Positions 18,911-38,835 of a stretch of 42,615 nucleotides of DNA are shown in pieces. The stretch is from Prorocentrum cordatum. Taxonomy: Eukaryota. The stretch spans positions 620,001-662,615 of the forward strand of contig CAUYUJ010000281.1 of the NCBI GenBank assembly GCA_963575745.1, read 5' to 3'. Numbering within the stretch: position 1 is the stretch's first letter; every line of letters starts with the position of its first letter. Below the pieces are notes generated by a model, which saw only the letters and a list, made by a program, of their open reading frames with translations, had not been told where the DNA came from and did not search any database. A program made the position numbers and the translations under genes.

Positions 18911-19139
18911 ACCATAACCTGCTTAGTGACCCTGGGTGCGAAGCACAGTATGAGTATCTCTGCTGATGACCTGGCGCCGTCAGAGTAATGTCAAGAACCC
19001 AATCCTTAGGACAGGGAGAATAAAGGCCCTCTCCTCCAGGCGACTCCTTGGGGCAAAAACTTGGACCATGCTCGTGGGCTCCGCGACCACTGTGTAGTAA
19101 TATCGTTTGACCGGGACGGTACCCTCATATCGGCTGCTC

Positions 19140-21225: not shown

Positions 21226-24200
21226 CTAAAATTGATTAGACTTGGGTTTGTCTCTGTCCTCGGGGCCCCGAAAGGGAACAAACTGCTTAACGTCATACTT
21301 GAATGACTGGGTGCCTGACATCACTTCCAGAAGCAGCTCCCGATCGATGCTTCCCTTTGTATGTCCGTCTGCGGTCATATCCCTAGTATCACACCACTGC
21401 ACGTTATGTACTATACCTATATCCATAAGCTCACGTATCCAACTGATGTGTCCAAGCAGAGTCCGTTCTGTCGGGATCTTAAGATCCTTGCTTGATAATG
21501 ATTTATAAACGGACTCAGCGTCTATGGTGAGAGATACTTTGATGGCTAGACCTCCAACTTCACGCATATCTCGTAGTTGTCGTGGAGCCAGAGCTCCTGC
21601 CTTGAGCTCGTGGAGAGTGATGAGCGTAGGATAACACTCATCGAGGTTATGCGCCGCTGCGAGTGCCTCCGCAGCATAGCTGGACCTCACCTGCAGTCGG
21701 TGTGATTTGCATAGTCCGCCACAGAGGTGAACAACGGACTTGCCTTGAGGCGAGTTTCCTCGCCGTAGTGCATTTGCCCCGCGTATGCCGTAGCCCTTGG
21801 TCTCATCATCCTCCTCCCCGGTAAGCTTCCGATACCCCGAATCGCTGTGGATGTCAACTTCATTCGTCGGCTTCATCCGAGGGAAGGTGATGCGTTTCGG
21901 GCTGCTGATCAGCTTTCGCGTCACAGCATTCAGGCGTCTGACTTGCAGATTGGTGGGCTCTTGGATTTTCTGGAGAGAGACCACGTATACCATGAGCCAG
22001 ATTTGAGTAAGAAGGGCATAGGCGAGGGCTCCTCGCAAGCTGACGAACATGTCGGTAATGAGTTTCGTGGCTTTGGCATCGGCCGCCGCTCCTGTAAGTT
22101 CTGGGTGTGTGATAGGACGTAGTTGTTTGATATACTCGTCCTGATCCATAATCACATCCCCTTGGTCATTCTTAGTGTAGCGAACGGCGCAGTTCGTATA
22201 TGTGTGTTTGTTTAGCTTGCATTTGCCAAACACCTTTTCAACGCGCTGGACGTAGTCGTCTATATTTTTCTCTAGGCCAGTCATGTTAATATCATCGACA
22301 TGTTTTGCCGTTAGCAGATCTTGGCTGAATTCAAATTCAGGGTCATAACTGGTCGGTGTAAGACCCATAGCTCGTGTGGTCGTACGAAGTTTGAGAGAGA
22401 ACGCTCTTGGAGCATCCTTTGTACCCGTTCCTGGTTTGAGGCATATGAGGCAGTGTCGGCTTTCGTCATAAGATGAGAAGCCAGGTAGCGCACGAAGTAC
22501 CTGGGCACTTCCCGGTGGAAGAGTGAAGCAGACCATGCGAGTTTCCTCGCCCGTGGCATGGGCAAGTTCCTCACAGGTCAAGCCCTTGAGGAACGCCTTG
22601 TCGATATCCATGGATGCTAAGATCCACTCTGGATGACATGCCGCCTCACTTGCCAGGAGTCTTTGGGACTGCCTTCGGGCGGCTCCCGAGAATGTTTCCA
22701 CATCGAAAGCCTCAGTCACCATAAGTCCGCGAAGGACAAGTCTGAGACGAATGGTTTTAACGTTCTCGGTACCCATCTTTACAAACTTCCACTTGTATAC
22801 ATACCTGGATGTCATGATGTTGGAAGCTTTGGATAGACCATACATCTCACAGCATCGGTTGTCAATCCAGGTTTTGAGCTCAGTATACAAAGCTTCACTA
22901 ACCTCCTTTGGGTGTGCTGCTATGTCGGCTTTGGTCAGTAGATCATCTTCTTTAACGACCACAGCACGTTTAGCAGCAGAGGATACATATACTCTCATCG
23001 TTGCGACCATATCGGTGTCGAGCTGTGCAAGTTGAGTCTGATCCAACACTATTTTTGACATTTCTGATGTAAAACATAACTCAACGTAAGGACCATATTC
23101 ATCACTGTCAAGAGAGTAGCTCTCGTCAGGTGTGGTTGAGCATAGAGAGACTATACAGGACTCTCGTGGTTCAGGCTCGTCTCCGAGCGTGACCGGTGAT
23201 ATGGTATCTTCTTCGTCCACAGATGCTGAAACCAAAACACATTGGTCAGGCAGCATGGTTGTTGGGACGCAGTAAAGATAATCGTCGGTAGTCGTCGTAG
23301 GATGAAGGTCCATACGTAGTTCGTCGTACCATTCTTCCAGCATCGTAGCTTCGATATTATTTTCCTCATTTTCCTCATAGATTGTCGACAGACGGCCTTC
23401 GCTCGGCGATGAAGCACCCGGGGTGTCTGGAGGAGGCCTGTTGCCAGGCGAATCGTGTTCTCCAGACGTGTTGCTTGAGTGCTGATATTTAGCCAGGTCG
23501 TCATGAAATCCGAAGGAAGGGACACGTGAAGTCAAGCATTGGATGAGTCTGGAATGAGTGCTACCAGTGATCTGAGAAATGTTTAGGCCGGTGCCCACAC
23601 ACTCGTAGTAGTGGAAAGCCGGGCTGATATCGTTGTCATAGTGGATCAGCGTAGACCCGGTGGCGTACTTTACTGCAGGTAGGATTGACACACTTTTGGC
23701 CAATCTAACTGCCACTACATGTTCTACTCGGAAGTAGTTGCGTACGAGATACTGTAGTGCTAGATGTACGCGCGGGTGAAACTTGCTGTTGTCTGAAAGA
23801 TTAAGGTTTCCCTTGTAATCGGGGGTATAGCCGAAATCTTTGGCGGGTTTCCCTGCGCCGAGGTGTGCCACATATGTAAGGACGGTTTGCATGGCCATAG
23901 TATCCATGCCAAGTTCCCGTGTGAGGAGGCATTCAATGTATAGTGTGTGACGAGCATCAGGATACATCACAATTACCTCACGAGATCCTGCCTTGACAAC
24001 AATATGTCCTCTTTCAGGCACATTACGGATCACCGGGAAGGGGCCATTCCAGCCTCCATGGTCGTCCTTGGTGGCAGTGGGTCGGTGGTAATCGACCAAA
24101 TCCCCCGCAGAATAAAGGCGAGCACCATCAGGAGTCGTTTTAGCCCTAAGAGCCCGATTTGTCTTGGCCACAGCAGTGGCCTGAGTTATAGCCTCTAGGC

Positions 24201-24840
24201 TGACTTCCCGTACACGACGTTCTCGTTCGTGTCCTGAAGTCTCGGGTCCCTTGGGAAAGTCAAGGGTATCGAGATCGGGAAGGAAGGAAGGCTGACGTCC
24301 TGCATGTGCTTGGTATGGCGATACTCCGTTATAAAACGTAAAAGCATTAGTAACGAAGATGCCTTCCGCCAATACTCTAGTGAATACAACAGGGATGTTG
24401 TGTCTATTCAGTTCTTCCTCAATCATGTGGAAGACGCCTCTGAGGATGCCGCTCCGTGACTCAATTGAAGTCGCGTGTTGGCCAGGTGCTCGGATACGAA
24501 GTTCCGTGCCATTGTTGGCCATCATGGTTTTAGCGGCATCGTTATTCAGGGCACCTTCTCCGTCTGAGTATAAGACTTTGAAGGGTCCGTGATAGGCAAT
24601 CCAGCAGTAGTGGTAGGCATCAATGATAGTGTCACGTTCTCTGTCGGAAATTTCTAGGCCCGCTGTCAGGCGTATACAGCGATCCATAATATGAAATATG
24701 GTCCGCTTTTTGTAGAACATGAGGTCCATTTCACCTTCGTCAAGCCAGTTACCAGGAAGGCTCACCGAGGGTAGTGTTGAGTTTCCTGGACGTTCCCATG
24801 CTCTGCATTCCCGACAGGTATCGCAAACTTCCTTGATCAT
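21226..24840 (-). CDS. pol: Pol C-terminal part: integrase core, Copia-type reverse transcriptase, RNase H
   Basis: Integrase CDTCREC, DLMF, YSDGEG, IESRSG and an SH3-like WNGPFPVI; RT SRYVYKWK, RLRLVLRG, DIDKAFL, GTKDAPRAF, KHVDD; RNase H HSDSG, SSYAAEALA, IDAES, MTADGHTKG. Confidence 0.95.
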   Translation of the reverse strand: MIKEVCDTCRECRAWERPGNSTLPSVSLPGNWLDEGEMDLMFYKKRTIFHIMDRCIRLTAGLEISDRERDTIIDAYHYCWIAYHGPFKVLYSDGEGALNNDAAKTMMANNGTELRIRAPGQHATSIESRSGILRGVFHMIEEELNRHNIPVVFTRVLAEGIFVTNAFTFYNGVSPYQAHAGRQPSFLPDLDTLDFPKGPETSGHERERRVREVSLEAITQATAVAKTNRALRAKTTPDGARLYSAGDLVDYHRPTATKDDHGGWNGPFPVIRNVPERGHIVVKAGSREVIVMYPDARHTLYIECLLTRELGMDTMAMQTVLTYVAHLGAGKPAKDFGYTPDYKGNLNLSDNSKFHPRVHLALQYLVRNYFRVEHVVAVRLAKSVSILPAVKYATGSTLIHYDNDISPAFHYYECVGTGLNISQITGSTHSRLIQCLTSRVPSFGFHDDLAKYQHSSNTSGEHDSPGNRPPPDTPGASSPSEGRLSTIYEENEENNIEATMLEEWYDELRMDLHPTTTTDDYLYCVPTTMLPDQCVLVSASVDEEDTISPVTLGDEPEPRESCIVSLCSTTPDESYSLDSDEYGPYVELCFTSEMSKIVLDQTQLAQLDTDMVATMRVYVSSAAKRAVVVKEDDLLTKADIAAHPKEVSEALYTELKTWIDNRCCEMYGLSKASNIMTSRYVYKWKFVKMGTENVKTIRLRLVLRGLMVTEAFDVETFSGAARRQSQRLLASEAACHPEWILASMDIDKAFLKGLTCEELAHATGEETRMVCFTLPPGSAQVLRALPGFSSYDESRHCLICLKPGTGTKDAPRAFSLKLRTTTRAMGLTPTSYDPEFEFSQDLLTAKHVDDINMTGLEKNIDDYVQRVEKVFGKCKLNKHTYTNCAVRYTKNDQGDVIMDQDEYIKQLRPITHPELTGAAADAKATKLITDMFVSLRGALAYALLTQIWLMVYVVSLQKIQEPTNLQVRRLNAVTRKLISSPKRITFPRMKPTNEVDIHSDSGYRKLTGEEDDETKGYGIRGANALRRGNSPQGKSVVHLCGGLCKSHRLQVRSSYAAEALAAAHNLDECYPTLITLHELKAGALAPRQLRDMREVGGLAIKVSLTIDAESVYKSLSSKDLKIPTERTLLGHISWIRELMDIGIVHNVQWCDTRDMTADGHTKGSIDRELLLEVMSGTQSFKYDVKQFVPFRGPEDRDKPKSNQF

Positions 24841-24846
24841 GTTCAG

Positions 24847-27690
24847 TCAAACGTTATCAAGCCCCACTTTGTCGAGGATTAGCCTCATCTTTGGTTCCTT
24901 CGCATGATACCATCGCAGATGTAGTTTTCGGAGTTCCTTTTTCACGACGTGAAGTTCGTGACTACGGAGACTCTGTAGACTGTGTTGGATGTCGAATCTA
25001 GTCCAGTCGGGTAGTCGAGGAGCCCCAGAGCCGGTGGAGGCAAGAGGGTTCCTTGTAGCTCTTCGTAGTTGGTCCCCTGTGTTGACTGCATCTGGAGGTG
25101 GTGGTACGCCTTGTAGGCGGCCCCGACGGGCCGCTACCTGTGGCGTTTCGCTAGAGGACGCAGAAGGCGTGTTTCCACGCTCGGGGGCGTCTTGTAGCAT
25201 GTCGTAACTGCTGGCACCAGATGTCGGATCGACGTTACCGAAGGATCGTGGCCGTGGTGGCCTGGCGTGTGCGCCTTGGCGGCCACCTGAAGCTGAAGCT
25301 TGGCCCTCACCCGGTTTAGGTAAGGGTTTCCACCAAGCTGGCACGGTTTTGCCTTCGGGGTCGCGATCGTCTGGACGTTTAAATGGTTCAGCAAAACGAC
25401 ATTTACCAGGTTCGGTATCGAGGTGGTTCTTAACACCCTTGCTTCTCGTAAGATCCCTCTGGCATGCCGGACATGGCCAGTATACAGAGATAGAATCATG
25501 ATATTTACACTGTGTAGGGTCTCTGTTATGGCTAGGACTGTCCTTTCGGACGTTGTCGACGCATGCCGGGCAAGTGGCCACCTTTGGGATGATACGATCA
25601 CCGATGCGTCTCATACCTTCGCCTGGTTCAGCTTGATCGGGAAGGTCTGCAGGGTAAGCATGCGCGGTACTTATAGGCGCGTTTCCGCGCGTAGTGTCAA
25701 TGGCTTTCGCCAGATAGACGGCTTCCACGAAGGCAGACTGCAGTCGTCGAGTATATTTTTGTGCCAGTGAAAGCTCTTTATTGCACGGTTGTGCGCGCAC
25801 ATGCTGACCGTTGCACTTGAGTCGCTCAAAGGGTTTAAGAATTGTCTCGTCGTTGCTGGTGATGTCTGTCGGCTTCTTAATATAGTCACCAGCTGTGTCT
25901 TTGAGTCCCGTAGCACATTGGTCAATGCGTACGGTTGTAATGCGCGGTCGGTTGGCAAGTTTCTTCCATGGGGAAATATCATCCACCCATGTTCCTGTAG
26001 GTTGTTCGCGTATAAACCACCTCAGAGCGTCATCTTGGGTTACAGCAATTTTACCACAATAAGTTATGTGTGGTAAATCTTCTCTGCGGTGCTGTTCCCA
26101 AGTGTTGTAGTTGACTTTGTAGTTGTAGTAGGATGGTGGTCCTGCGGTGCGGCAACTGGGTTGTAGCATGGCAACTCGTACGTAGCATATAGCGAAGTAA
26201 TGATCTATAACCCGCTGCACCGAGGGGTCTCCCATATCGACATATGCAGTCTTGTCTCGGTTGCCTCCTGAGGAGAGTCCCCTTGAGAAGGCAAGCTCTG
26301 AGATACCACCCTCACCGCCACAAAGCTCCAACATGTCCACGCAGTTGTTATGTCCATAGCATAGTGTAGCAACTATGCTGTATATGTTAGCGCGTGTGTC
26401 GGGCATAGATGTGGGGAGGGTAAGGAACAGGTCATCGTCCTCATCGGAGCTTATCAGCTCAAGAGGGGCGTCAGTACTCCAGGTTGCCATAAGATCCTGT
26501 CCGAGTCCTGATAAATCGTCGCCGCAATCATCGTTTCCGTCTTCAACGTGCTTTTTTATGCGGCGAGGCTTGATGCCTGCTTCCTTTTCGGCTTTGAGCC
26601 TTTCCTTCTGCTTGATACGCGATTCTGTGGGTAGAACTTGCTCATCTTGTTCGCCGGTCTGCGTGCCCATTGTCGTGGTTGAGTGGGTACATGCGTCAAC
26701 CGCCAGAGTCGGGAGGGGGAGGCAACAGTCATCTATGATGACGCGTCGAGGTTTCTGTGGTGATTGAATAGGCTCGTTTCCGAGCAAGACCGGTTCTTCG
26801 GGTTGCCAATACAGCCGAGTGCTGATGTTGGCAACCCCTGCAGGTAGTGGTGCATGCCAATCATATCCTGTTGGTTGATCGGTAACTGAGATATCCTGAA
26901 TAACCGCATTGGTATCCAGGTTAATTGTTACACGTCGGATAACTTCAGACCATTTCGGTCCTCCCTTATTGGTCGTCACGTAGTGACGGATGTTGTGGTC
27001 TGTACGTGTATAGGTGTTTAAATATATAGGCACGTTTCCGTGCGTGGTGGTGCTCCCCAGGATGTTGTCGTTCAGATGACGGATGAGTGTAGTACGTGTC
27101 TGAGCTCGCCATTCAGCATGCCGTACTGCATGGCCGTACCAATCCAATACATGTTGTGGTATAGCCTGTTTGCATGTACATGCCCACGGCTTCGAGCTAA
27201 TCGGTATTGATGACGCTACCTGCATATAAGTACCACTCGGTGTACTGTCTTGCATATTGAACCGAATACCGAAATGACACAAACGCATCCGTATTACTGA
27301 CAACTTAAGATCTTCCAGGGTATCACGTACTGGAGACAACTTCCAAACATATCCTGGGGGACCAAATATTATGATTTTCATACGGAGTTTCTTGGCTTTT
27401 ATCAACAGGTTCTGGATACGTGACCAATGCGGGGCCACTCTCTTTCCTGGAGCTCGTACATACCAGTCACCCGGGGTACTAATCCATATGAGAGTATAAT
27501 CTCCACTGATCACCGCACCCAGGTAATCTGTGCCCACGCTTGTCATAAGCTCATTGTGGGAAATACGATCACAGATATAACCTCGGGTGCGGAGGTCGGC
27601 GCAAGCCTCTCTCGTATCCTCAATGACAAAAGCCCTCTTACTAAGGCAGGTTACCCCGCTGTCCTTGTTACCCCCCGGCTTTTCGGCCAA
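24847..27690 (-). CDS. Polyprotein segment: two C5-cytosine-methyltransferase-like domains, tandem C2HC fingers and the His-His half of the integrase zinc finger
   Basis: MLELCGGEGG (motif I-like), LQPSCR (IV-like), IREQP (VI-like), IDQCATGL...KKPT. An earlier degenerate copy has LIWISTP, IFGPPGYVW, LCHFG. CPAC..H..C occurs twice. LRKLHLRWYH is in frame with the downstream ORF across one TGA. Confidence 0.75.
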   Translation of the reverse strand: MAEKPGGNKDSGVTCLSKRAFVIEDTREACADLRTRGYICDRISHNELMTSVGTDYLGAVISGDYTLIWISTPGDWYVRAPGKRVAPHWSRIQNLLIKAKKLRMKIIIFGPPGYVWKLSPVRDTLEDLKLSVIRMRLCHFGIRFNMQDSTPSGTYMQVASSIPISSKPWACTCKQAIPQHVLDWYGHAVRHAEWRAQTRTTLIRHLNDNILGSTTTHGNVPIYLNTYTRTDHNIRHYVTTNKGGPKWSEVIRRVTINLDTNAVIQDISVTDQPTGYDWHAPLPAGVANISTRLYWQPEEPVLLGNEPIQSPQKPRRVIIDDCCLPLPTLAVDACTHSTTTMGTQTGEQDEQVLPTESRIKQKERLKAEKEAGIKPRRIKKHVEDGNDDCGDDLSGLGQDLMATWSTDAPLELISSDEDDDLFLTLPTSMPDTRANIYSIVATLCYGHNNCVDMLELCGGEGGISELAFSRGLSSGGNRDKTAYVDMGDPSVQRVIDHYFAICYVRVAMLQPSCRTAGPPSYYNYKVNYNTWEQHRREDLPHITYCGKIAVTQDDALRWFIREQPTGTWVDDISPWKKLANRPRITTVRIDQCATGLKDTAGDYIKKPTDITSNDETILKPFERLKCNGQHVRAQPCNKELSLAQKYTRRLQSAFVEAVYLAKAIDTTRGNAPISTAHAYPADLPDQAEPGEGMRRIGDRIIPKVATCPACVDNVRKDSPSHNRDPTQCKYHDSISVYWPCPACQRDLTRSKGVKNHLDTEPGKCRFAEPFKRPDDRDPEGKTVPAWWKPLPKPGEGQASASGGRQGAHARPPRPRSFGNVDPTSGASSYDMLQDAPERGNTPSASSSETPQVAARRGRLQGVPPPPDAVNTGDQLRRATRNPLASTGSGAPRLPDWTRFDIQHSLQSLRSHELHVVKKELRKLHLRWYHAKEPKMRLILDKVGLDNV

Positions 27691-30613
27691 CAGGCAAGAC
27701 GACGAGGGGGCGACGTCGCCCTGCCATCTTCAAGATAAAGAAGATGTGCCTGCAATGTCTGCCAGCATCTGGGCCCCTCAGATGCTGGAGCTCAGCACTG
27801 CAGCGCGCCGTGGCCTCAGAGGCGGATTGCTCCGCAAATGCTGTCAGCATGGGTGGATTATCCATCAGCTGTTTCAGCACGCCTTTGGACCTAGCGTCAC
27901 TGACCGTCTGCAGCTCACGGTTAGTGTATCCCATCACTATCTTCCGGCGGGACTGTACGGCGTCCACGGGTACACTTCCACCATGCTGGGCCAGTGTCCT
28001 GGCAACAAAGCAATCGAACGTCTCAAGATCGTCGATGCTGTCGCCTCGCATAGTGGCCTTGGCGAGCGTCTCCATCAACCCCTGAGGCAGGTTTCCCTGC
28101 AATTGCTCGCGCTCCTGCGCCGGGGCCGGCTCGCCCGTCAGCGCTGTCTGAAATGACGTGCTGCTTGAGCTCGAGGCGGGTTGCCCCGCAGCTCCAAAAC
28201 AATCACACCTGATCGACAGATGCCCTGACGGCAACTTCGTCGTTGGCATGATTTTGGAGCCCTCAGGGAGCTCCATTTTGACCTGCCCCTTACCAGGGAA
28301 TATCAGCTTCTCCTGGCCTCGTTCAAGCACGATGATCGTGCGTTTGTCCTGCATACTATCGAGGCCTAGGATGGCTGGCAGGTCCTTGCCACAGCCTGAC
28401 ACAATGTTCGTCTTGTATGAATCGAGTTGGGCCGACCCCTGGTACTCGCAGGCAATACTGAATGTGCCTACGGTATCCGCTGGGGCCGACCCTTCTCCCA
28501 CTCCGTTGATATTCAAACGAGAGCGGGGCTCGAACGTACAAGTACGGCCATGTGCCTCGGCAGCCTGGACGAACTTGCGGCTCGTGTTCTCGCCCATGAT
28601 GTTGATCTTCGAACCGACATCGATGAGGATGGAATTTCCACCATCATCCAAGAACGTCTTACTCGGCTGCTTGATGTGCACCGTTTCTGAAGTGTCGGCT
28701 GTGATGTTAGGCGGGTTTCCCCGCAGCCCAGTCGCACTCCCTGGCGGGCTGCCCCGCGTGACACTGGCATGCGACCTGCTTTCGGCCATGCGCGCCAGGT
28801 CGATGTACTGGAAGTACGACACTTGCTGGGCGTGGTCGCCACGTTCCTCCCGCCAGTTGGCATACTCATCACGTATGCTCTTATACTGTTCGCGGGTCGT
28901 GCGCCTCGTCAGCGTCAGGTACGAGTGAAGGGCAATGTCCTGCAGCCCCTCATTCGTGATGTGATCCCGGTATTGCAGCCACTCCTCGAACTCCTCGTTC
29001 GTCGCTGTGATGTTGGCGGCCCTGGCTGCCGTTGCTGCTGTTGCCACTGAGGAGTCTGATATGTCAAGCGACGGACTATCAGTCTCAGGATTGTCGGCAT
29101 CCAGCATAAATGTTGTGTGCGCATTATCCATCTGATTCTGGAAATGTCGAACACGCAACTCACGCAGCTGGTCAGGGTCCAGTGCCATCTCGGCCCCGCC
29201 TCCACTCTGGGGAGACATCTGAGGAGTATTAGGCAGGTTTCCCTGCTGAAGCGCCGTCATCGGGATAAGCTGATCAAAATATCCCGTCTCCATCGGCGGC
29301 CTTACCTCCTCTGGCAGGTTTCCCTGCTGTTGGGGCTGAGCTGTCGGCATGTCTAGCATCCTGGCCGTCATCTCCTCCACCATGCTCCTCAACTCCCGCA
29401 GCTCCCTCGCTGCTTGCTCAGGAGTCTGAATGAAGGAGCCGGTCCAAGGAAATGATGACGCTATAATGCCAGGTGCTCGGCAGATAGCACATGGTGGCTG
29501 CTGAGGATCTCCCTCACGCTGATTCGTGACATGGCCCACCACATTTGAATTCCAGCATCCCTCATGGAACAAGTGATTACACCTCAAACGGTAAACACTC
29601 TCTCTGGGCTGAAATTCTTCGAGGCATACCGCACAGGTATCTTCCATCCCAGTGAAAACCTCAATGTCTGCTGCCCTGGGATATACTCGCCGCTGTCTCT
29701 CCAATACCGTCTCGGAGGGCATGAAGGCTGCTGGGGGAGTCCCCGTTGGGTCCAGCACCTCCGGCACTCCGGCATTTGGCATGGAGGTGGTGGGAGTCAC
29801 ATCGGGCGAGTTCCCTCGCAAAGGTGAGCCCCTGTTTCTCACCACATCAAGTGCAGCTGCACGTGACTGATCCCGTACACTTTGCACAGCCTGCCTTCTC
29901 CTGAAGCATGCCTGCTGAGTGTGGTAAGTCTGCCTGATGTAGTCAGGCACGCCCCTACTGCCAGACGATATTGAACGGGCAGTGGGCTGGACAACCACCT
30001 CTGGTGATGTCGGTGAAGGCATGAAGGCCATGTGCGGGTACATGGATTGGTCACTGCAGCGCACATTAGTGAGGTTATGCATCTGATCCGCCAATTCGCG
30101 AACAAATTTGTTCGGAACCCTTGACCCATCAGGGTATAATGGCGGGTTCATCTGCGCTGGTGGTGGCCTCTGGCCCTGAGACATGCTCGGATGGGCATTG
30201 AACGCCGGGATGAAGGCTCGTTGCCGAGCAGGATCCCTTGGGTTGGGACCCTCAGGTTCCCAGGACCAGGCCGGCCTCCACCTCTGCCCGCTTGGGTGAG
30301 GCAGATTATGGCTCTGCACCTGCTGCACCGCGGCCGCCACTCTTGCACGGTAGTCGTCAGGCACACTAGCCCGATGGTGGCTTGGTGTGCCAGGCAGGTT
30401 TCCCTGCTGACTCGTTGGCGTGCCGGGCGGCATCATGTTCAGGAGAGCTGAGCTGTGCTCAGCCCTAGCCGCAGCTATCCTCTCCATGAGAGTGCCGTTT
30501 GTGGCAGGGCGGACAGGAGTCCCGAACGGAGACTGTGCAGGTGGCGTGGCCATTGGAGTCATGCCCCTTCGGAGTGCGCATGCTCTGTGAGGGGCTTCCC
30601 TGCATTTGTTCAA
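27668..30613 (-). CDS. Polyprotein segment: RING-H2 finger and retropepsin-like aspartic protease
   Basis: C-x2-C-x14-C-x-H-x2-H-x2-C-x21-C-x2-C (CAVCLEEF...CNHLFHEGCW...CAIC, ~29478-29637); ILIDVGSKINIMG, flap-like INGVGEG and AILGLD (~28350-28635). Confidence 0.85.
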   Translation of the reverse strand: MNKCREAPHRACALRRGMTPMATPPAQSPFGTPVRPATNGTLMERIAAARAEHSSALLNMMPPGTPTSQQGNLPGTPSHHRASVPDDYRARVAAAVQQVQSHNLPHPSGQRWRPAWSWEPEGPNPRDPARQRAFIPAFNAHPSMSQGQRPPPAQMNPPLYPDGSRVPNKFVRELADQMHNLTNVRCSDQSMYPHMAFMPSPTSPEVVVQPTARSISSGSRGVPDYIRQTYHTQQACFRRRQAVQSVRDQSRAAALDVVRNRGSPLRGNSPDVTPTTSMPNAGVPEVLDPTGTPPAAFMPSETVLERQRRVYPRAADIEVFTGMEDTCAVCLEEFQPRESVYRLRCNHLFHEGCWNSNVVGHVTNQREGDPQQPPCAICRAPGIIASSFPWTGSFIQTPEQAARELRELRSMVEEMTARMLDMPTAQPQQQGNLPEEVRPPMETGYFDQLIPMTALQQGNLPNTPQMSPQSGGGAEMALDPDQLRELRVRHFQNQMDNAHTTFMLDADNPETDSPSLDISDSSVATAATAARAANITATNEEFEEWLQYRDHITNEGLQDIALHSYLTLTRRTTREQYKSIRDEYANWREERGDHAQQVSYFQYIDLARMAESRSHASVTRGSPPGSATGLRGNPPNITADTSETVHIKQPSKTFLDDGGNSILIDVGSKINIMGENTSRKFVQAAEAHGRTCTFEPRSRLNINGVGEGSAPADTVGTFSIACEYQGSAQLDSYKTNIVSGCGKDLPAILGLDSMQDKRTIIVLERGQEKLIFPGKGQVKMELPEGSKIMPTTKLPSGHLSIRCDCFGAAGQPASSSSSTSFQTALTGEPAPAQEREQLQGNLPQGLMETLAKATMRGDSIDDLETFDCFVARTLAQHGGSVPVDAVQSRRKIVMGYTNRELQTVSDARSKGVLKQLMDNPPMLTAFAEQSASEATARCSAELQHLRGPDAGRHCRHIFFILKMAGRRRPLVVLPVGRKAGG

Positions 30614-32225
30614 ACCGAGCAGGTCCGTTTATAGGCAGGTTTCCCTGCACGGCCCGACGATTTCGCAGTGCCATGGCGGACATTGCTCCCTGGCCTGCGG
30701 CCCAGGGGTCCTGCTGATATAACCTGTTCGCCAGTTGCTCTACCTGGTCAGGGTTCAGCGCGGCTGCTATCTGATCCAGGTCCGAGGTGCTGATGGCCTG
30801 CCAAGACACGGCACTGGGCCCTTGGCTTGGGGCACGGCTTGGAGCCGCGCTCCCGGCCTCACTCTCGGTGATCATGAAGATCCGGTGGATCTCAGGCTGG
30901 TTTCCCAGCTTGGTGGGGCTATAATGGTCCCCAACTTCCCTGTGGGGGTAGACCATGGGAGGGTCGGTGCCCTCTTGGTCTCGGGACCACTGGTATTTAA
31001 CGCTAGCACTGCCAACGTTAGCCCACCTGTCAGGAGCAGACATTATGGCGACGGGGACTCGCGCCCGGCGATTCCCCAGATACTCTGGATCACGCCAGTG
31101 CTTTCCCGTGGCAAGGTCCTCTACATGAGAGATGTAGTACGGTTCAATAATACCGTTGTTTCCCTCAGACAAGAGGACTCCGTTATCGGACCAACAGAAC
31201 TTCATTCCATCTTGTATGGCCTTGTGCCAATCCACGAAGATGATGATGTCGGAGTCTGGGTCCCACCCACTGTTCACGGCACGGCGGCGGACCGCCGGCG
31301 CGAAGTGGATGTGCGACCGACCTGTCCCCTGTTTCTTCGTATTGTGTTCAGGTCTACAGGACAGGCCGTGCCACATAATGCCTTCGAAGGCATGCCACCG
31401 AGTGCCATGCTTGGCGACTTCGGGGTATGGGGCCGGTCTCCCGGCAGGTTGGTCGCACAGTACAATGTAGTTGTACAGCGACCATGGCGCTCTCAATGTC
31501 CATGAATGCCCCTGAGAGGCGCGGGTGAAGATAGCGGGCTCACCGGAGTCCCGCACCAACACCTTGAACTGAAGGCGCTGTTTTTCTTCTCCGTCTGGTT
31601 CACGGACATGAACAACTTCCATCATGATGGCTGCCAATTGGTCAACCGAGCGAGCAACTAGCTGCTCATTGATGACTTTGGCCTCGTCATATCTTGGATT
31701 ATACCCATCGTGTCTCGATTTTCCTGTGTTCCACGGATATTCATTCACGAGCTCTACGAGGTTAAGCCAACCATCATGATCATCGAAGGAGTCCAAGCCC
31801 CACACGGGATTGTGAGGTTTGTCTGGCGCATGTCTGCATATCCTGCTGAGAGCTTTACTCAGCTGTTTGAGAGTGTGATTGGATGTAGGAAGGATTTTGT
31901 CTTGCCTGCACTTCCTCATGAATGCCTCGTCCACCGAACGTATCGGTGGGAGCTTCCGCAGGGCAAGTCTATCCCTGATCACACTCGGACTCCCACTAGT
32001 GAAGGACGTGTCGCCTGGGTGGTGCAGCTGAACCACGGGCGGGTTTCCCCGCATCGGAACCTCTGTTGCTGACGAGGCTGCGGCTCCTGAAGAGGAGGAA
32101 GCTGCAGCAGCAGCGCCTGGCGGGTTTCCCCGCGGTGATACGCGACTGGCGCTACCCCTAATCGTCGGCACCCAGGTACCCCTAGACATAGCACCTTCAT
32201 CGGACCTCTTGGAACGGGCCGCCAC
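30465..32225 (-). CDS. tpt1: Polyprotein segment containing a Tpt1/KptA NAD-dependent RNA 2'-phosphotransferase domain (~31130-31865)
   Basis: LSKALSRICRH, KQRLQF, RASQGHS, KHGT, IMWHGLS, RSHIHFA, IIFVDWHKAIQDGMKF, SDNGVLLSEGNNGIIEPYY: the Tpt1 motif series in the expected order. Confidence 0.88.
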   Translation of the reverse strand: MAARSKRSDEGAMSRGTWVPTIRGSASRVSPRGNPPGAAAAASSSSGAAASSATEVPMRGNPPVVQLHHPGDTSFTSGSPSVIRDRLALRKLPPIRSVDEAFMRKCRQDKILPTSNHTLKQLSKALSRICRHAPDKPHNPVWGLDSFDDHDGWLNLVELVNEYPWNTGKSRHDGYNPRYDEAKVINEQLVARSVDQLAAIMMEVVHVREPDGEEKQRLQFKVLVRDSGEPAIFTRASQGHSWTLRAPWSLYNYIVLCDQPAGRPAPYPEVAKHGTRWHAFEGIMWHGLSCRPEHNTKKQGTGRSHIHFAPAVRRRAVNSGWDPDSDIIIFVDWHKAIQDGMKFCWSDNGVLLSEGNNGIIEPYYISHVEDLATGKHWRDPEYLGNRRARVPVAIMSAPDRWANVGSASVKYQWSRDQEGTDPPMVYPHREVGDHYSPTKLGNQPEIHRIFMITESEAGSAAPSRAPSQGPSAVSWQAISTSDLDQIAAALNPDQVEQLANRLYQQDPWAAGQGAMSAMALRNRRAVQGNLPINGPARFEQMQGSPSQSMRTPKGHDSNGHATCTVSVRDSCPPCHKRHSHGEDSCG

Positions 32226-33960
32226 TGGCGACGCTGGCGCAGGGGCATACCCGGTGCGCTCGAAAGCTGCGGCCCTTTCGCAATGGAGCTGCTGCGACTG
32301 GGCGGACGTCTCCGTTCCTCCACAGGGTCCTGAGATTGCTGCTTGGGCTCAGACGCTTGTGCAGGAGTTGCGCCAATCGGCGGCCTCGGAGTTGCAGACC
32401 GAGGCACCTCCATCTGCACATCTGGCCCAGGGTCCTGAGAGTGCGCCTTCGGTTTCGCCTTCGAAGACGGCTTCGGTGCAGGGGTTTCACTCTTAGCCTT
32501 CGACAGTAGTGGGAGGGGGGGTTCCTAACCCCCTTCATGTAATTTTTGTTGGAATCCTCCAACATCTGGCGAGTTGCCTCGCGTGCGCGTTCGTCTGCTA
32601 TTCGCATGCGTTCCTCGTCCTCCGCAACTCGTTGGGCCTTCTGTTCATCCTTGGATGTCAGTTCTGGTTGCTGGGACCGACTTGAAACTCCAGGCGAGTT
32701 TCCTCGCATTCCAGGAAGACTAAAGAGCGCGTCTTTTTCTTCCTGGGTCATGGGCACCAGCCCCCTTGGAGCCGTGGGAGGTTTATCCTCTTCGGCTTTC
32801 GGATCCAAGTGGCTCAAGATCCCGAGACGTTGACTCACTTCTGCGATCTCGTCCTGTGTCATCGGGATAAGTTGCGGATGGCCCTCTTTATGAAGGGTTT
32901 TGCCCCTGTTGGGGCTCAGGCCTTCATTGTTTCCAACGGGGCATCCCGGCCTGTGGTTCTGGAACGGCTCGGAACAAGGTCCGCAAGCTGCTTGGGGCCT
33001 ATACTGCTTGCGAGCTGCGATGATGTCTCGCAGCTGAGTCCGCGCTTCTTGAATTTCAGGGCGGCGGATGTTTGTTGCAAGCTGATATCCTCCGCGGATA
33101 GCCTTGCCCTCAGTGTCCCTATAGGCAGGGCTGTCCTTGCCGAAGGCCGAGTGTTCCCCTTTTCGGCGTCTTGGGTCATTATGCGGAAGCAGCTGGCCAC
33201 CTCTCCTGAGAGCGTGTTCTTTCGGGCCAGCTTGCCTCCATTCACGAGGAAGCCGAGCCTGTGGATGTGGCTCTCCTCTGACGCGCGTATGGGAACGAGA
33301 CCTTCTGGTGTTCTCATCAGAAGAGGCTGCCGAAGCAGCCTGAGCGGCCACCGGTGGAGGCGCCTGCGGAGGCTCCTGTGCGATCCCAGGTGGATCGCCC
33401 GTCAGAGGCAGGTTTCCCTGCTGGCTGGAGCTCGGCGCAAATGGCGCCTGTGCCGATGGTGATGATGGTTCAGACTCGTCGGGATCGAAGTCAACCTCTT
33501 CCTCACCATTAACATCCATCATGAGGATTGTAACTTCATCCTCATCTAGTCCGCAACCATCGCCTTCTTCTTCTTCTGATGTAGAACTACCGATAATGAT
33601 GGCCATTGGCGTATCAGGTACTGGCAAATTTCCCTGCATGGCCGGCGTCTGTGCGTCGCTCGGCTGCCCCGGGGTAGGAGGCGCTGTTGTCGGCTCAGGC
33701 TCGTTGCCGAGCACGGGCTGCCCGGCAATGTTGCGCATGGCCGTATGGTTTGGCCACATTCCCACCGCCTGGAGACCCCATCCTGGCGGAGGAAGATCAT
33801 GACCGCGCATGGCGATAGCCATTTCCAGAGCATTGCGCCATCTACCTCGGGAATATATCAGGTGTCTCTGCACGTCCTCTGGATGTACGCTGTCAATGAG
33901 AGTCAGAGCTGCCAACAGCAACTCCGAGCTACCGCAGGCGTCGGTATCCTGCAGTATCAT
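32197..33960 (-). CDS. Polyprotein segment of unknown function (acidic/proline-rich, one CxxC-H-C motif)
   Basis: 587-aa non-repetitive ORF between Gag and Tpt1; CGPCSEPFQNHRPGC at 32941-32985. It probably frameshifts near 32515. Confidence 0.65.
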   Translation of the reverse strand: MILQDTDACGSSELLLAALTLIDSVHPEDVQRHLIYSRGRWRNALEMAIAMRGHDLPPPGWGLQAVGMWPNHTAMRNIAGQPVLGNEPEPTTAPPTPGQPSDAQTPAMQGNLPVPDTPMAIIIGSSTSEEEEGDGCGLDEDEVTILMMDVNGEEEVDFDPDESEPSSPSAQAPFAPSSSQQGNLPLTGDPPGIAQEPPQAPPPVAAQAASAASSDENTRRSRSHTRVRGEPHPQARLPREWRQAGPKEHALRRGGQLLPHNDPRRRKGEHSAFGKDSPAYRDTEGKAIRGGYQLATNIRRPEIQEARTQLRDIIAARKQYRPQAACGPCSEPFQNHRPGCPVGNNEGLSPNRGKTLHKEGHPQLIPMTQDEIAEVSQRLGILSHLDPKAEEDKPPTAPRGLVPMTQEEKDALFSLPGMRGNSPGVSSRSQQPELTSKDEQKAQRVAEDEERMRIADERAREATRQMLEDSNKNYMKGVRNPPSHYCRRLRVKPLHRSRLRRRNRRRTLRTLGQMCRWRCLGLQLRGRRLAQLLHKRLSPSSNLRTLWRNGDVRPVAAAPLRKGRSFRAHRVCPCASVASGGPFQEVR

Positions 33961-36467
33961 GCTGTCAGCTTCGATGTGCTCTTGACTCTCGGGAACGCGG
34001 TGATAAGTATCTCATGCGTCCTCATGAGGGTCTGCAGAAGAGTACGTGGTCCGTATTCGCCTGGAGCAAGCGAACCAGGGGGTACAAATGGGGTCTCTGG
34101 TTCACCTGTAATGAAAGCTTGTGCGAATGCCTGAGACTCCATTTCTATCAAGTCTTCAGTAGTTTGGGGATATTCTCCCATCAAAGAAGGCCTGCTTCCA
34201 GGCGGGATTTCGGGGGGAGGTTGGAGGTGGCGTTCAACCTCAGAAGGCGAGGCCTCTACAGTGATGTCCTCGTCACTGCTTTCGTAGGCCATGATGTTAC
34301 CTGGGTTCCCGAACATCCAGCCGAAGAAAGAAAGAGGCTGGTTTCCCAGCGTACCGTGATCCACGGGAGTGAGCTCGTTATTGCCCATAACGAACCGGCG
34401 GACGTACTCGAGGTAGTACGCGTACAATCCATGACCATACGCCTCGAGCTCGTCGACGTTGCCCATGCAACTGACCCAAGTGTAAAATATCTGCTCCATG
34501 GCTTCAAAATCCTGGAGGCTCAGATACTCAATGAATGGTTCACTTGAGCCAAAATGGACTTCGGTCGACCTGCCCTTTCCATTTCCCTTCGCTGGACAAT
34601 CTCGCACAAGATGGTCGGTACTATCACATTCATGGCATTTAAGAACCTGGCCGTCTCTACCTCGCGGGTTTCCCCGCCTACCCTTGCCTTTTCCTGAGGT
34701 CTCTCTACGGCCCTTGCCACGGCCCTTTCCCCCAAAGAAGATCTCATCATATTGTTCATCTGAGAGCCTCTGGAGAAATGCCGCGATGCCTCGTCCGTTC
34801 AACCTCCGACGACCACGCTTACCTTTACCTTTTCCCTTAAAACTCCTCCGTATCCTCCTTCTAACACGACGCACTGGTTTTCGTGTGAACCTCCTCCACC
34901 TTCGTTTGGCCTGTTGTAATAACCAGAACAGATGTTCAGCGCGCTGATTGTCATTATCCATATTCATAATATCTGACCAATCTAAAGCTTCAACACCATC
35001 TGATGATACAGTATCTGTGTCGGTGCCGGAGTCGAAATCCTCGTCTCCCAAGTAGGTGGATACACCGTCGGTTAGGGGGTTTGATTCGCCCCATAAGGAG
35101 CGGTGTGGTTGCGGTTCTCTGGAAGGAGGGCTGGTTGCCCAGCTTGGTTGTGATCGATCTCCTGCTAGTAAAGCAGTGGATTCTCCAGGATCATCAGCCC
35201 ATATGCTTGAGGGCCCGTTCCCAGGCTGGGCTTCAGTAGTCAGGGTAGTGTAGAAATTTCCACTACCAGATCCCCTTCCCCTTCCAAACACAGATCCTAT
35301 ATTACCAGGAGACCGTTCGGATAGGTGGCCTATCGAACGCATCCTCTCCAGCAACTCATCATACTGTTGTTGTGTTCGGGGCATTTGGTGATTAAGTGGC
35401 TGTAAGAGTCGCATGGCTCGCTGGTTGCCGACGCCTAAGGCGCGGAACAAGATCGCGGTTAGTAGTTGGAAGTTGGGAAGGTCAAATCCCACCGACTGTG
35501 CCTCAAGACGGGCCATTTCGAATCGGGTGAGGGTGACATCGATTCGCTCCCCGTGAGGCACGTGAAAGTCGATGAGTTGTGTGCCGGAAGTGAGCTGGCG
35601 CTCATCTTCCAGGCGTTCGAACTTCATGCTTAGGAGGAACATGATGTAGGTCACTGGGTCAGTATGGACCCCATCGATGTCAGCACCATAATTTATGATG
35701 TCAGGCGGTACCCTCATGGCGAGTGTCCTCGCTAGGCCACCTAGGCCGCGTTGTATTGCGGCCGCTTGGGCCTGTGGCGTCATACGTCCGCTTGTGACGT
35801 TGAGCCATTCGTTGACCTCATAAACGTACTCCCGGAAAGGTACGTTGCTTTGAGGGTCCCAATATGGGCCATGTGTTTGCCCATCGGTGCTGCTGTCTCC
35901 ACGACGCATGTGCCCGATTGCTGCCCCCAGCGCGAACCATATGATAGCGAAGATAACCAGCCCAAGGCTATGTAGATAAGGGCGGTTATTAGGCGCGTTT
36001 CCGCGCTGGGGTAGCGCCTTGTCGAGTCTTCGAGGCGCTCTATCTGGCGGATCTCTCCGCCCCTGCTTCACGTATTGCGTTTTTGGCTCGTTGCCGAGCG
36101 GTTGGTGGTAGCGCAATGATGAAGCGTATATGGTACCAATGTCGTTGTCTAGACGTCGTACCTCTCGTGTCGCTTCTTGCTCTTGGATAGATCCTCGTAA
36201 ACGTACTGGGAGTAATAGCGCAGGGTGGTAGGTGGTCACGAAGATCGTACCGAAGAGTATGAGGCTAAGAAGAGCAAGAGCTGACCACACGAGAGTGCGG
36301 CCAGCTCCGCTACCAAGTCGAAAGTGAGCCTGGTAACTCAAATAGCATCCGATTCCATGATAGACATCGGATAGCAAATAGCGTCCATCGCTCTGCTGTG
36401 ATAGTTCAATATGAGGAATGGGCGGATAAAACAGGATAAGATCGATGTATCGGTCTTTCCAGCACAT
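33957..36467 (-). CDS. gag: Gag-like protein with N-terminal hydrophobic segments and CCHC zinc knuckle
   Basis: CHECDSTDHLVRDC (C-x2-C-x4-H-x4-C) in a KGKGK/RG-rich nucleocapsid-like region; capsid-like PYWDP...FREY...W. The start is uncertain: the first ATG at 36467 is inside the LTR and the next is at 35909. Confidence 0.85.
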   Translation of the reverse strand: MCWKDRYIDLILFYPPIPHIELSQQSDGRYLLSDVYHGIGCYLSYQAHFRLGSGAGRTLVWSALALLSLILFGTIFVTTYHPALLLPVRLRGSIQEQEATREVRRLDNDIGTIYASSLRYHQPLGNEPKTQYVKQGRRDPPDRAPRRLDKALPQRGNAPNNRPYLHSLGLVIFAIIWFALGAAIGHMRRGDSSTDGQTHGPYWDPQSNVPFREYVYEVNEWLNVTSGRMTPQAQAAAIQRGLGGLARTLAMRVPPDIINYGADIDGVHTDPVTYIMFLLSMKFERLEDERQLTSGTQLIDFHVPHGERIDVTLTRFEMARLEAQSVGFDLPNFQLLTAILFRALGVGNQRAMRLLQPLNHQMPRTQQQYDELLERMRSIGHLSERSPGNIGSVFGRGRGSGSGNFYTTLTTEAQPGNGPSSIWADDPGESTALLAGDRSQPSWATSPPSREPQPHRSLWGESNPLTDGVSTYLGDEDFDSGTDTDTVSSDGVEALDWSDIMNMDNDNQRAEHLFWLLQQAKRRWRRFTRKPVRRVRRRIRRSFKGKGKGKRGRRRLNGRGIAAFLQRLSDEQYDEIFFGGKGRGKGRRETSGKGKGRRGNPRGRDGQVLKCHECDSTDHLVRDCPAKGNGKGRSTEVHFGSSEPFIEYLSLQDFEAMEQIFYTWVSCMGNVDELEAYGHGLYAYYLEYVRRFVMGNNELTPVDHGTLGNQPLSFFGWMFGNPGNIMAYESSDEDITVEASPSEVERHLQPPPEIPPGSRPSLMGEYPQTTEDLIEMESQAFAQAFITGEPETPFVPPGSLAPGEYGPRTLLQTLMRTHEILITAFPRVKSTSKLTA
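36301..36315 (-). promoter_or_regulatory. tRNA primer-binding site (probably initiator tRNA-Met)
   Basis: Minus strand TGGTAGCGGAGCTGG directly abuts the 5' LTR. The TGGTAGC start matches the ..GCUACCA 3' end typical of eukaryotic initiator tRNAs. Confidence 0.8.
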
Positions 36468-36576
36468 AGCGAACACTCGCGGTGTCCGGGCAAATAGGGC
36501 GCGCGTGCCTTGAGCCAAAGGCAACGGCGCGCGAACTATGCTCCCGATACTATAACATCTCCCAAAGAGCTACCCT
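36316..36576 (-). repeat. 5' LTR (261 bp)
   Basis: Direct repeat of 20592-20852. Confidence 0.95.
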
Positions 36577-36714
36577 GGACGGAGTGACGGCGGGAGCGTC
36601 CAAAATGGCCTCGGCAAGCAGGCCCAAATCATTGATTTCTGCCACGGCCTCTTGGGAAGAGCGCAATCCCCCCCCCCCGCCCCCCCGTCCTCCCTACCCC
36701 CTTCTTTGATCGAT

Positions 36715-36870
36715 CACCTTGAAGATGGCCCCAAGATGGCCCCCGAGGCTCCCAAGAGTGCCCCAAGAGGCGCCCAGGAGGCCCCAAGAGGCCAAGAGAC
36801 CCCCAAGAGGCCCCCTCCCAAGGCACCGAAGACGCTTCAAGAGGCCTTGAGGGCCGCCGCGAGGCCCCAA
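36715..36870. repeat. Degenerate (CCCAAGAGGCC)-like 11-bp repeats
   Basis: Direct inspection. Confidence 0.7.
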
Positions 36871-37764
36871 CACGCCGCAACAAGCCGACAACAAGCTCCC
36901 GAGGACGAGGACGAGGACGACGACGAAGAGAAAGACGGCAACACCACAGGCACCGCCCCGCAATTCCACAAAACACGAAAACGCAGTCGGGGGGAGGGGG
37001 TAGCTTCGGAAGCCACCCCCCGCAACCGGAAGCCAAGGCTCACCCTCAGCCCCGAGAAAGAGGGGGGGGATCTTCGATCCCCCCACCTAGGGGCCCGGCA
37101 ACGGCAACCTCCAGCTTTGCAAAGGGGGGAGAAAGCGGGGGAGAAGGGTAGCTTCGGAAGCTTGCCTCCTCCTCCTCCTCCTCCTCCTCCTCCTCCTCCT
37201 CCTCCTCCTCCTCCTCCTCCTCCTCCTCCTCCCCAAAGCGGGGAGGGGCGGAACTTCGGAAGCCCCCACCCCGTACAGCAGGGGGGGGGGAGCAGCTTCC
37301 CCCTCCAGCCTCGACAAGGGCAGCACAAGCTTACCCCGACACCCAGAAGGAGGGGGAGGGGTTCTGAAGCCCCCCCATGAGTGTCCCAGCGGAGGGAGGA
37401 GGGGGAGGGAGTAGCTTCGAAAGCCCCCTCTCCCCTGGTGGAAGAAGGGGGGAGCTTGAAGCTGGGCCCCCGCAGCGCGCTCTTTCATACTTACATCTCT
37501 CTTTCTCTATATATATATAAAGAGATATCGGAGGTTGGGTGAGATCGCAGTGAAACGGAGACCCCCAAACGGGACATCGTGTCGTTTCGGTCGTGTTGTG
37601 CGTGCGTGCGGGCGAGGCGAATCTGCCTGGACGCGCGAGAGGAATGAACCCGCCGTTGCTAGGGCGAAATCAAGGCAAATGCTGTTTCTCGCCTTCCGTC
37701 CGTCCGCCTTCCGTCCTGCACAAATGTTGCGCCTCCGCCTTCCGTCCGTCCGTCCGTCCGTCTG

Positions 37765-38835
37765 GCGGTGGCCCGCGGTGTCCCGTGGTGTCCCATTGAG
37801 TGAGATCGATAGTGATCGATGGTGAGATCGATACTAAGATCGATGTGGTGCCTCGAGGTATCCCGTGGTGTCCCAACAGGTGAGACCGATAGTGCGATCG
37901 ATAATGGGATCGACAGGTGTCCCGTGGTGTCCCGTGGAATCCCGTGGTGTCCTGTGAGTGAGATCGATAGTGAGATCGATACTGAGATCGATGAGGTGCC
38001 CGGAGGTGTCCCATGGTGTCCCAAAAAGTGAGATCTATAGTGAAATGGATAGTGAGATCGGCAGGTGTCCCGTGGTGCCCCGTGGTGCCCGTTGAATGAG
38101 ATCTCTAGTGGGATTGATGTGGTGTCCCGAGGTGTCCCGCGTTGTCCCGTGGTGCCCCGGGGTGTCTGGTTGAGTGAGATCGATACTGAGATCGATAACG
38201 ATATCGACAATTGTCCCGGGGTGTCCCGTGGTGTTCCGTTGGGCGAGAACGATAGTGAGATCGATCGTGAGATCGATACTGAGATCGATAGTGAGATCGA
38301 TAGTGAATTCAATACAGAGATCGATTTGGTGCCCCGAGGTGTCCCGTGGTGTCCCAACAAGTGAGACCGATAGTGAGTTTTGTGAGATGGACAGGTGTCC
38401 CGTGGTAACCCGTGGTGTCCGGTGGTGTCCCATGGGGTCACGTTGAGTGAGATCAATAGTGAGATCGATGTGGAGCCCGGAGGTGTCCCGTGGTGTCTCA
38501 AAAAGGGAGATCTATAGTGAGATCGTTAGTGAGATCGACAGGTGTCCAGTGGTGTCCCGTGGTGTCCCGTGGTGTCCCGTTGCGCCCCGTTGAGTGAGAG
38601 TGGTGTCCCGAGGTGTCCCGTGGTGTCTGTCCTATGGTGTCCCGTTGAGAGTGAGATCGATCGTGAGATCGGAAGTGAATCCCACCGTGAGATCGAGAAG
38701 TGTCCCGCGGTGTCCCGTGGTGTCCCGTGGTGGCCCGCGGTGTCCCGAGGTGAGTGAGATCTTTAGTGAGATCGATAGCGAGATCGACAAGTGTCCCGTG
38801 GTGTCCGGTTGGGTGAGATCTATAGTGTGATCGAT
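37765..38835. repeat. Interleaved satellite of 10-bp (GTGTCCCGTG) and 12-bp (GAGATCGATAGT) units
   Basis: Alternating blocks of the two motifs over ~1 kb. Confidence 0.9.

Follow-up and report, generated by a model that had tools for sequence, protein, structure and literature searches.

A Tpt1/KptA RNA 2'-phosphotransferase domain in the polyprotein of a Copia-ordered retrotransposon of Prorocentrum cordatum

Overview of the locus

The DNA analysed here is a stretch of 42,615 nucleotides (nt) from Prorocentrum cordatum (assembly GCA_963575745.1, contig CAUYUJ010000281.1, positions 620,001 to 662,615 of the forward strand), which is referred to below as the window. Its minus strand carries a 16 kb retrotransposon with long terminal repeats (LTRs), and a domain of the Tpt1/KptA family of RNA 2'-phosphotransferases is encoded within the polyprotein of this element. 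An initial annotation, made from the sequence alone, had proposed such a domain from an ordered set of Tpt1 motifs at 31130..31865. The motif set is borne out on the minus strand: profile, predicted fold and catalytic residues identify a Tpt1/KptA domain, which lies in the polyprotein of a Copia-ordered LTR element. All feature coordinates are collected in Table 1.

Identity and fold of the domain

The domain is encoded by a stop-to-stop open reading frame (ORF) of 627 amino acids at 30465-32348 on the minus strand. The Pfam family PTS_2-RNA (PF01885) matches residues 161-396 of this ORF with an expectation value (E) of 1.1e-22 and a score of 81.3 bits (cut-off 26), and since the match spans profile positions 4-177 of 177 the domain is full-length. 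A phmmer search against all Protein Data Bank (PDB) sequences returns human (E 2.4e-11) and mouse (E 1.4e-9) TRPT1 and no other match; in the alignment the stretches LSKALSRICRH, KQR and GRSHIH are paired with the matching stretches of TRPT1. The bacterial NCBIfam KptA equivalogs match the domain weakly, with 30.6 bits against a cut-off of 239.

The predicted fold reaches beyond the Pfam match, to about 31089-31931. For this 281-amino-acid segment an AlphaFold2 model was built from an alignment of 58 sequences, with a mean predicted local distance difference test (pLDDT) of 83.2 and a predicted template modelling score (pTM) of 0.75. The two-lobe fold is recovered, consisting of an RNA lobe and an ADP-ribosyltransferase-type lobe for nicotinamide adenine dinucleotide (NAD+). 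The RNA lobe contains a long insertion, with low confidence at model residues 39-50 and 73-75. When the model is compared with the PDB using Foldseek, the matches listed at E<=0.001 (ranks 1-22) are all Tpt1/KptA structures. The best of these are human TRPT1 (7yw3, E 2.4e-13) and its mouse counterpart (7yw2), with a target-based TM score of 0.70-0.75 for TRPT1. In a comparison with viral models, giant-virus Tpt1s and the replicase of a Botrylloides leachii nidovirus rank highest. Profile search and structure prediction had been named in the initial annotation as ways to check the assignment; both were run and both return Tpt1/KptA. The presence of the domain in this ORF is confirmed, well beyond chance.

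Catalytic residues and donor loop

Residue numbers below refer to the 281-amino-acid segment and columns to the 58-sequence alignment. The essential Arg-His-Arg-Arg tetrad of Tpt1 is reported as R23, H24, R71 and R138 in the yeast enzyme and R40, H41, R86 and R150 in the human enzyme, and a Ser-Lys RNA-binding pair, an HGT motif and a Ser-Gly-x-Arg donor loop are described as further features (PMC10622864; PMC10415124). In the element, R33, H34, R119 and R205 align to the four human tetrad residues. The column of R33 holds arginine in 41 of 45 filled cells and that of H34 histidine in 42 of 44. The columns of K117 and R119 (57/57 each), of H175 in the HGT motif H175-G176-T177 (58/58) and of R205 and H209 (58/58 each) show no exception. 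Other family residues that are present are Q140-G-H-S143, S221-G222, S248 and N250. The tetrad candidates, SQGHS and HGT singled out in the initial annotation are all located on conserved family columns.

The third tetrad residue, the step-2 arginine, is invariant in the window copy and in two of its relatives, P0002 and P0003, which are described below. It is reported to be essential, together with the Ser-Lys pair, for 2'-phosphotransfer, whereas both are only partly needed for 5'-capping; the step-2 arginine is not required for the latter, as R81A retains 20-50% of that activity (PMC10415124).

The donor loop is the one site that departs from the family. Its arginine, present in 50 of the 58 sequences, is replaced by Asp224 in the window copy; the relatives P0002 and P0005 likewise carry aspartate, and P0003 and P0153 carry valine. 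The arginine (Pho Arg133/Ape Arg134) is described as touching the 2'-phosphate and the NAD phosphates, and its mutation to alanine as deleterious in Runella and inessential in yeast (PMC10622864). As judged from the alignment, no residue of the essential catalytic set is lost, and the phosphate cage shows a single change that is shared across the clade.

Architecture of the host element

The element is bracketed by two direct repeats of 261 nt that are about 97% identical over their core and lie 15,724 nt apart (the direct-repeat search itself gives 94% over 281 nt). The ends of these LTRs read AG...CT rather than TG...CA. Six long open frames are carried on the sense strand, and the order of the encoded domains is zinc knuckle, Tpt1, RING finger, protease-like motif, a region of unknown function, integrase, reverse transcriptase and RNase H. 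On motif-level evidence, the succession of protease, integrase, reverse transcriptase and RNase H, with the integrase before the reverse transcriptase, corresponds to the Copia order. The initial annotation had placed Tpt1 between Gag and the protease and inside the LTRs, in agreement with the knuckle on one side of it, the protease-like motif on the other and the repeats at both ends.

Table 1. Features of the retrotransposon in the window, listed along its sense strand
Feature	Position	Strand	Evidence or remark
5' LTR, 261 nt	36316-36576	minus	direct repeat
Candidate primer-binding site, TGG-initiated 12-mer	36304-36315	minus	directly after 5' LTR
34 perfect hairpins, GCNNG-GNRA-CNNGC(C)	20967-36099	minus (element sense strand)	pattern search
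Gag-type CX2CX4HX4C zinc knuckle	34596-34637	minus	motif; Pfam zf-CCHC E 0.019, below cut-off
Tpt1/KptA RNA 2'-phosphotransferase domain	31161-31868	minus	PF01885, AlphaFold2 model, Foldseek
LSKALSRICRH	31830-31862	minus	located motif
Arg-His of catalytic tetrad	31830-31835	minus	alignment; Ser-Lys pair just upstream in LSKAL
KQR, with third tetrad residue (step-2 Arg)	31575-31583	minus	alignment
SQGHS	31503-31517	minus	located motif
HGT	31401-31409	minus	located motif
GRSHIH, with fourth tetrad Arg	31305-31322	minus	alignment
Donor loop N-S-G-W-D	31260-31274	minus	Ser-Gly kept, conserved Arg replaced by Asp
RING finger	29471-29635	minus	zf-RING_11 E 1.5e-8, zf-RING_2 E 9.7e-7
Protease-like LIDVGS...AILGLD, candidate retropepsin	28358-28627	minus	motif level; D-V-G instead of D-S/T-G
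960-amino-acid stretch of unknown function, protease to integrase	24847-27729	minus	open frame
Integrase, HHCC finger and D, D, E core	24451-24921	minus	motif level; finger split by TGA
Reverse transcriptase, Copia type	22228-22830	minus	RVT_2; HVDD at 22291-22302
RNase H-like motifs	21355-21852	minus	motif level
3' LTR, 261 nt	20592-20852	minus	direct repeat

The RING finger, located between Tpt1 and the protease-like motif, is also found in the relatives P0153 and P0156; it is not known as a usual domain of Copia elements. The protease-like region has no Pfam match, and its LIDVGS motif (28610-28627) is conserved in P0153. For the reverse transcriptase, each of the ten best Atlas clusters that have a family belongs to the same family or the same clan as RVT_2, the highest score being 0.90, and no RNA-dependent RNA polymerase (RdRp) family of Pfam matches the polyprotein. 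The 960-amino-acid stretch finds no match in Pfam, NCBIfam, PHROGs or the PDB sequences, its Atlas score is 0.77, and a single-sequence AlphaFold2 model of its residues 455-770 is unusable (pLDDT 31.9). It contains motifs (a G-x-G-rich strand, P-S-C and R-L-Q-S-x-F) that may resemble those of S-adenosylmethionine-dependent or C5 methyltransferases. Searching the other ORFs of the element against Pfam at E<=5 adds nothing beyond the RING finger, the knuckle and RVT_2; NCBIfam and PHROGs give nothing usable, and there are no matches to PDB sequences. A tRNA scan of the window found no tRNA gene to pair with the candidate primer-binding site.

Relatives of the element

An exhaustive HMMER search with the Tpt1 domain yields 870 matches at E<=1e-3, of which 24 reach E<=1e-10 and three reach E<=1e-30. 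The closest are short fragments with 59-88% identity; five of these were looked up (P0004-P0007 and P0011), and all five are labelled Pyramimonas sp. CCMP1952 in EukProt. The next relative, P0003, is 44% identical, and its 90% cluster includes P0153, a protein of 1379 amino acids encoded on a metagenome contig of 4295 nt. In P0153, Tpt1 (Pfam E 1.7e-13), the RING finger and the start of the protease lie within one uninterrupted ORF, which is collinear with ORFs C and A of the window (33-35% identity over 659 and 714 columns). When the regions are compared separately, Tpt1 shows 41% identity to the window, which falls within the 29-63% of its neighbours.

A word-index protein search gives one near fragment, P0002, and no longer protein, the latter being weak evidence. 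The same kind of search with ORF A finds one relative, P0156, which is too short to show its Tpt1 status. No related locus came up in an alignment-based search of JGI metagenome contigs and IMG/VR, and a degenerate nucleotide pattern for the peptide next to the RING finger matches 0 loci in metagenome contigs. The fragment P0007 (102 amino acids, EukProt) fuses an integrase-region peptide (76% over 34 amino acids) to a Tpt1 peptide (69% over 75 amino acids), and is either a rearranged copy of the element or a transcript or assembly chimera.

The initial annotation had named two outcomes that would speak against it: the absence of a profile or structural match, or a domain present in a single, neutrally evolving copy. 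Neither describes the domain, which is conserved in the relatives. The sequence comparison indicates that Tpt1 is not a one-off capture and has been conserved since the split of lineages that are now about 40% identical. It is very probably an integral, conserved domain of the element polyprotein. The nearest named cellular matches are fungal Tpt1s. In a quick tree, three element sequences fall outside a 51-row clade that contains both named fungal Tpt1s (Shimodaira-Hasegawa-like approximate likelihood ratio test 99), and their monophyly is neither supported nor rejected. Because the named near matches are fungal and the bacterial equivalogs match weakly, the donor of the domain was probably a eukaryote-type enzyme. 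Given also its RING finger, the 960-amino-acid region and the dense in-frame hairpins described below, the family seems to represent a lineage of giant LTR elements from marine plankton eukaryotes that has not been described before.

Other copies of the element

Contigs from four public runs, belonging to four studies, were placed on 27000-36600 (13478, 5044, 1269 and 1299 contigs per run), and in every run they cover 30 of 30 bins. The element thus belongs to a highly repeated family. The Tpt1 region is covered in the four runs at depths similar to those of the neighbouring regions.

At 33994, 32275 and 30570 the other copies carry small indels. Each of these falls within the overlap of the two window frames that it separates, and its size equals the offset between them. 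The reading frame is therefore continuous there in those copies: the knuckle ORF runs into the next ORF, the third-frame ORF 31979-32524 is joined to the Tpt1 ORF, and the Tpt1 ORF is joined to that of the RING finger and protease.

Differences between copies are enriched for synonymous changes. Of the 40 best-supported sites listed at which the window departs from nearly all of the contigs, 22 are synonymous, where 30% are expected from the observed mutation spectrum (binomial P 8e-4).

Sense-strand hairpins

The initial annotation had also placed Tpt1 among hairpins of the element, and a pattern search does find 34 of them along the sense strand. The expected number is 0.56, with a maximum of four in 300 first-order Markov simulations. 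The element's antisense strand has one such hairpin, and the two strands of the window outside the element have three in total. Stem positions covary, and the loop is GNRA throughout. Among the 32 hairpins inside listed ORFs, 25 share one codon phase and are translated into x-G-N-x-P peptides; two others are located in the 3' untranslated part. The hairpins flank the Tpt1 module and do not interrupt it, except for one off-phase hairpin at 31445.

The relatives were judged from their peptides, 14 codon-pair classes of flanking residues being compatible with a stem. P0153 and P0156 contain 14 x-G-[N/D]-x-P motifs, and all of these are flanked by residue pairs compatible with a paired stem, often with an implied GAGA-type loop (G-D). 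At three hand-matched positions the pairs differ from those of window ORF A in a compensatory way, as deduced from the peptides. A search of 20000-37200 against Rfam (E<=1) gives no ribozyme, no known RNA family and none for the hairpins; the sub-threshold matches are miRNA-like and mostly within a low-complexity stretch. These observations point to a conserved signal at the level of RNA, or of single-stranded DNA.

Other features of the window

Outside the element there are long tandem arrays with a 9 nt period (15357-16264, 18581-18943, 37167-37282 and 39231-39573). Repeats spaced about 146-148 nt apart, with GTGTCCCGTGG-type units, occupy 37809-38849, and a pure CT/GA low-complexity tract is found near 37120-37200. 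A query for a dinoflagellate spliced-leader motif has 0 matches in the window.

Comparison with known systems

The element domain shares with cellular Tpt1/TRPT1/KptA the full two-lobe fold, the tetrad Arg-His-Arg-Arg, the Ser-Lys pair, HGT and Ser-Gly. Its identity to TRPT1, taken from the fold alignment, is 24-26%, and it differs from the cellular enzymes by an insertion of about 25 amino acids in the RNA lobe and by the donor-loop aspartate. Cellular Tpt1 is a free protein of about 200-250 amino acids, whereas here the domain forms part of a polyprotein several thousand residues long.

KptA/Tpt1 has been reported in phages, in giant viruses and in the polyproteins of a few RNA viruses; cases given for the latter are the Botrylloides leachii nidovirus, Beihai picorna-like virus, other nidoviruses, the dicistro-like EPlV2 and PVLADV1 (PMC9503650, PMC11848433, PMC11316551). 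As in the element, Tpt1 is in these viruses part of the replicative polyprotein of a selfish RNA-based replicator, and the fold of our model matches a segment of the nidovirus pp1ab with E 3.4e-11. The RNA viruses with KptA use an RdRp, in contrast to the integrase, reverse transcriptase and RNase H found here. The element is analogous to them and not a member of their group.

Retrotransposons with other captured enzymes offer a second comparison. DNA methyltransferases are reported as captured by dinoflagellate and charophyte retrotransposons, the same source, which makes no mention of Tpt1, describing Symbiodinium Copia elements without them (PMC5890265), and an N6-methyladenosine demethylase domain is reported in an orchid Ty3/Gypsy element (PMC9289625). 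In those retrotransposons, as in the present one, a cellular nucleic-acid-modifying enzyme is fixed in the coding region of many copies. The class of enzyme differs, since the present domain has an NAD+-dependent ADP-ribosyltransferase fold that acts on RNA phosphates. Within the one literature collection searched in full text, Tpt1/KptA in a retrotransposon is not described. The fixation of additional enzyme domains is rare among retrotransposons, and the known cases, such as these two, have each exposed a pressure acting on the element's life cycle.

Proposed function

The reading that we favour is that of an integral Tpt1 domain, in a multi-copy Copia-ordered family, that removes RNA 2'-phosphates in an NAD+-dependent manner within the particle. 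Taken as a whole we regard it as somewhat probable, its weight lying on the parts documented above, and its components differ in strength. That the module is catalytically active is likely, given the conserved residues. That 2'-phosphate removal is its main activity we propose tentatively, and the suggestion that the RNA of the element itself is the target is rather doubtful.

Translated as part of Gag-Pol, Tpt1 would for that reason be carried into the particle, where it would catalyse the classical NAD+-dependent removal of 2'-phosphates from RNA. This reaction is favoured because the clade retains both the step-2 arginine and the Ser-Lys pair. The substrates would be 2'-phosphates at junctions sealed by a tRNA-ligase-type enzyme, or terminal 2'-phosphates. 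Plausible sources of such substrates would be a 16 kb genomic RNA that is cut and then resealed, or RNA ends that bear 2'-phosphates. With these groups removed from the RNAs used in reverse transcription, of which the 16 kb genomic RNA is the chief one, template and primer would stay usable.

A primer site that starts with TGG pairs with the intact CCA 3' end of a tRNA. As TGG follows directly after the LTR, the primer end should need no healing, and the healing of a cleaved tRNA-half primer was ruled unlikely on account of this TGG-initiated site at the LTR edge. The candidate primer-binding site likewise disfavours the initial suggestion that the domain processes the tRNA primer of the element.

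An extended proposal would join Tpt1 and the hairpins, whose compensatory stem changes extend to relatives with 35-40% identity, in one RNA-handling system encoded by the element. The hairpins would be places where the genomic RNA is recognised, cut and resealed, or chemically marked, and Tpt1 in the particle would clear or install phosphate-linked marks, which would let reverse transcription go ahead. We consider this a long shot; if true, it would be the first case of a retroelement that brings along an NAD+-dependent pathway for repairing or marking RNA.

Evaluation of the alternatives

Several observations weigh against the favoured reading. The donor-loop arginine is missing in all five element-clade sequences that cover the site, and its replacement by aspartate or valine across the clade means that the substrate or the chemistry may have shifted. 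A source of 2'-phosphorylated RNA is not apparent, as searches of the element against Pfam, NCBIfam, PHROGs and Rfam reveal neither a ribozyme nor a domain of a ligase, a kinase or a phosphodiesterase. Co-occurrence in relatives rests on two lineages, P0153/P0003 and the EukProt fragments, and Tpt1 and reverse transcriptase are not seen together on one contig in any relative. The RVT_2 match of the reverse transcriptase (E 3.8e-6, 27.1 bits) is under the Pfam cut-off of 31.6. No polypurine tract was found before the 3' LTR, where 20853-20885 is pyrimidine-rich on the sense strand, and no target-site duplication, the 5 nt flanks 20587-20591 and 36577-36581 being different. The window copy is defective, with at least four frame changes and an in-frame TGA at 24847-24849 within the HHCC finger of the integrase. 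The listed indels include none that joins ORF D to the third frame, and at junction 27774 an indel gives the right frame class while the window has a stop at 27730-27732, which may naturally separate the part from Gag to protease from the integrase/reverse transcriptase part. Finally, the test for synonymous change covers the 40 listed of 1022 variable sites, and three of these fall within the Tpt1 domain (two synonymous).

Some of these points feed directly into other explanations. The breaks in the window copy and the missing target-site duplication are what would be expected of a passenger, i.e. a host Tpt1 transduced once and decaying neutrally, or an artefact of assembly or nesting between LTR-like repeats. 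This explanation is largely refuted and now very improbable: the order Tpt1-RING-protease recurs in a single ORF of a relative that is 33-41% identical, fragments with 54-76% identity are present in another data set, four runs cover the region at depths like those of its neighbours, and the catalytic residues are all kept alongside the excess of synonymous differences.

The altered donor loop bears on two further explanations, which concern the activity of the domain. In the main rival explanation, the module could be chiefly a nucleic-acid ADP-ribosyltransferase that caps the 5'-phosphate ends of RNA or cDNA, such as those left by RNase H; ADP-ribose would then shield the ends from exonucleases, ligation or sensing. 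Both sequence and fold are closest to human and mouse TRPT1, an enzyme reported to ADP-ribosylate 5'-phosphate single-stranded RNA and DNA (PMC10415124; PMC6182162), and the loss of the arginine that cages the 2'-phosphate could favour another phosphate acceptor. We nevertheless regard capping as an unlikely main activity, since it is a side activity of some Tpt1 enzymes only and the step-2 arginine and Ser-Lys pair, needed for full 2'-phosphate transfer, are kept across the clade. Alternatively, the fold may have been re-purposed as an RNA- or NAD-binding module, or as an ADP-ribosyltransferase whose substrate is a protein or small molecule and not the nucleic acids of the element, for example in NADP(H) dephosphorylation or the modification of host factors. 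Besides the donor-loop change in all five clade members, the long low-confidence insertion in the RNA lobe, the adjoining RING finger and the reported action of Tpt1 on NADP(H) (PMC10622864) are compatible with this. Such a re-purposing is quite improbable, since the residues for nucleic-acid binding and catalysis (Ser-Lys, Arg-His, Lys-x-Arg and Arg) are all conserved.

Implications

If the favoured reading, 2'-phosphate removal by Tpt1 in the particle, is true, NAD+-dependent chemistry of RNA 2'-phosphates or ADP-ribose would for the first time be tied to reverse transcription. It would point to RNA breakage and repair, or to the marking of RNA ends, as a limiting step for retroelement RNAs of 16 kb.

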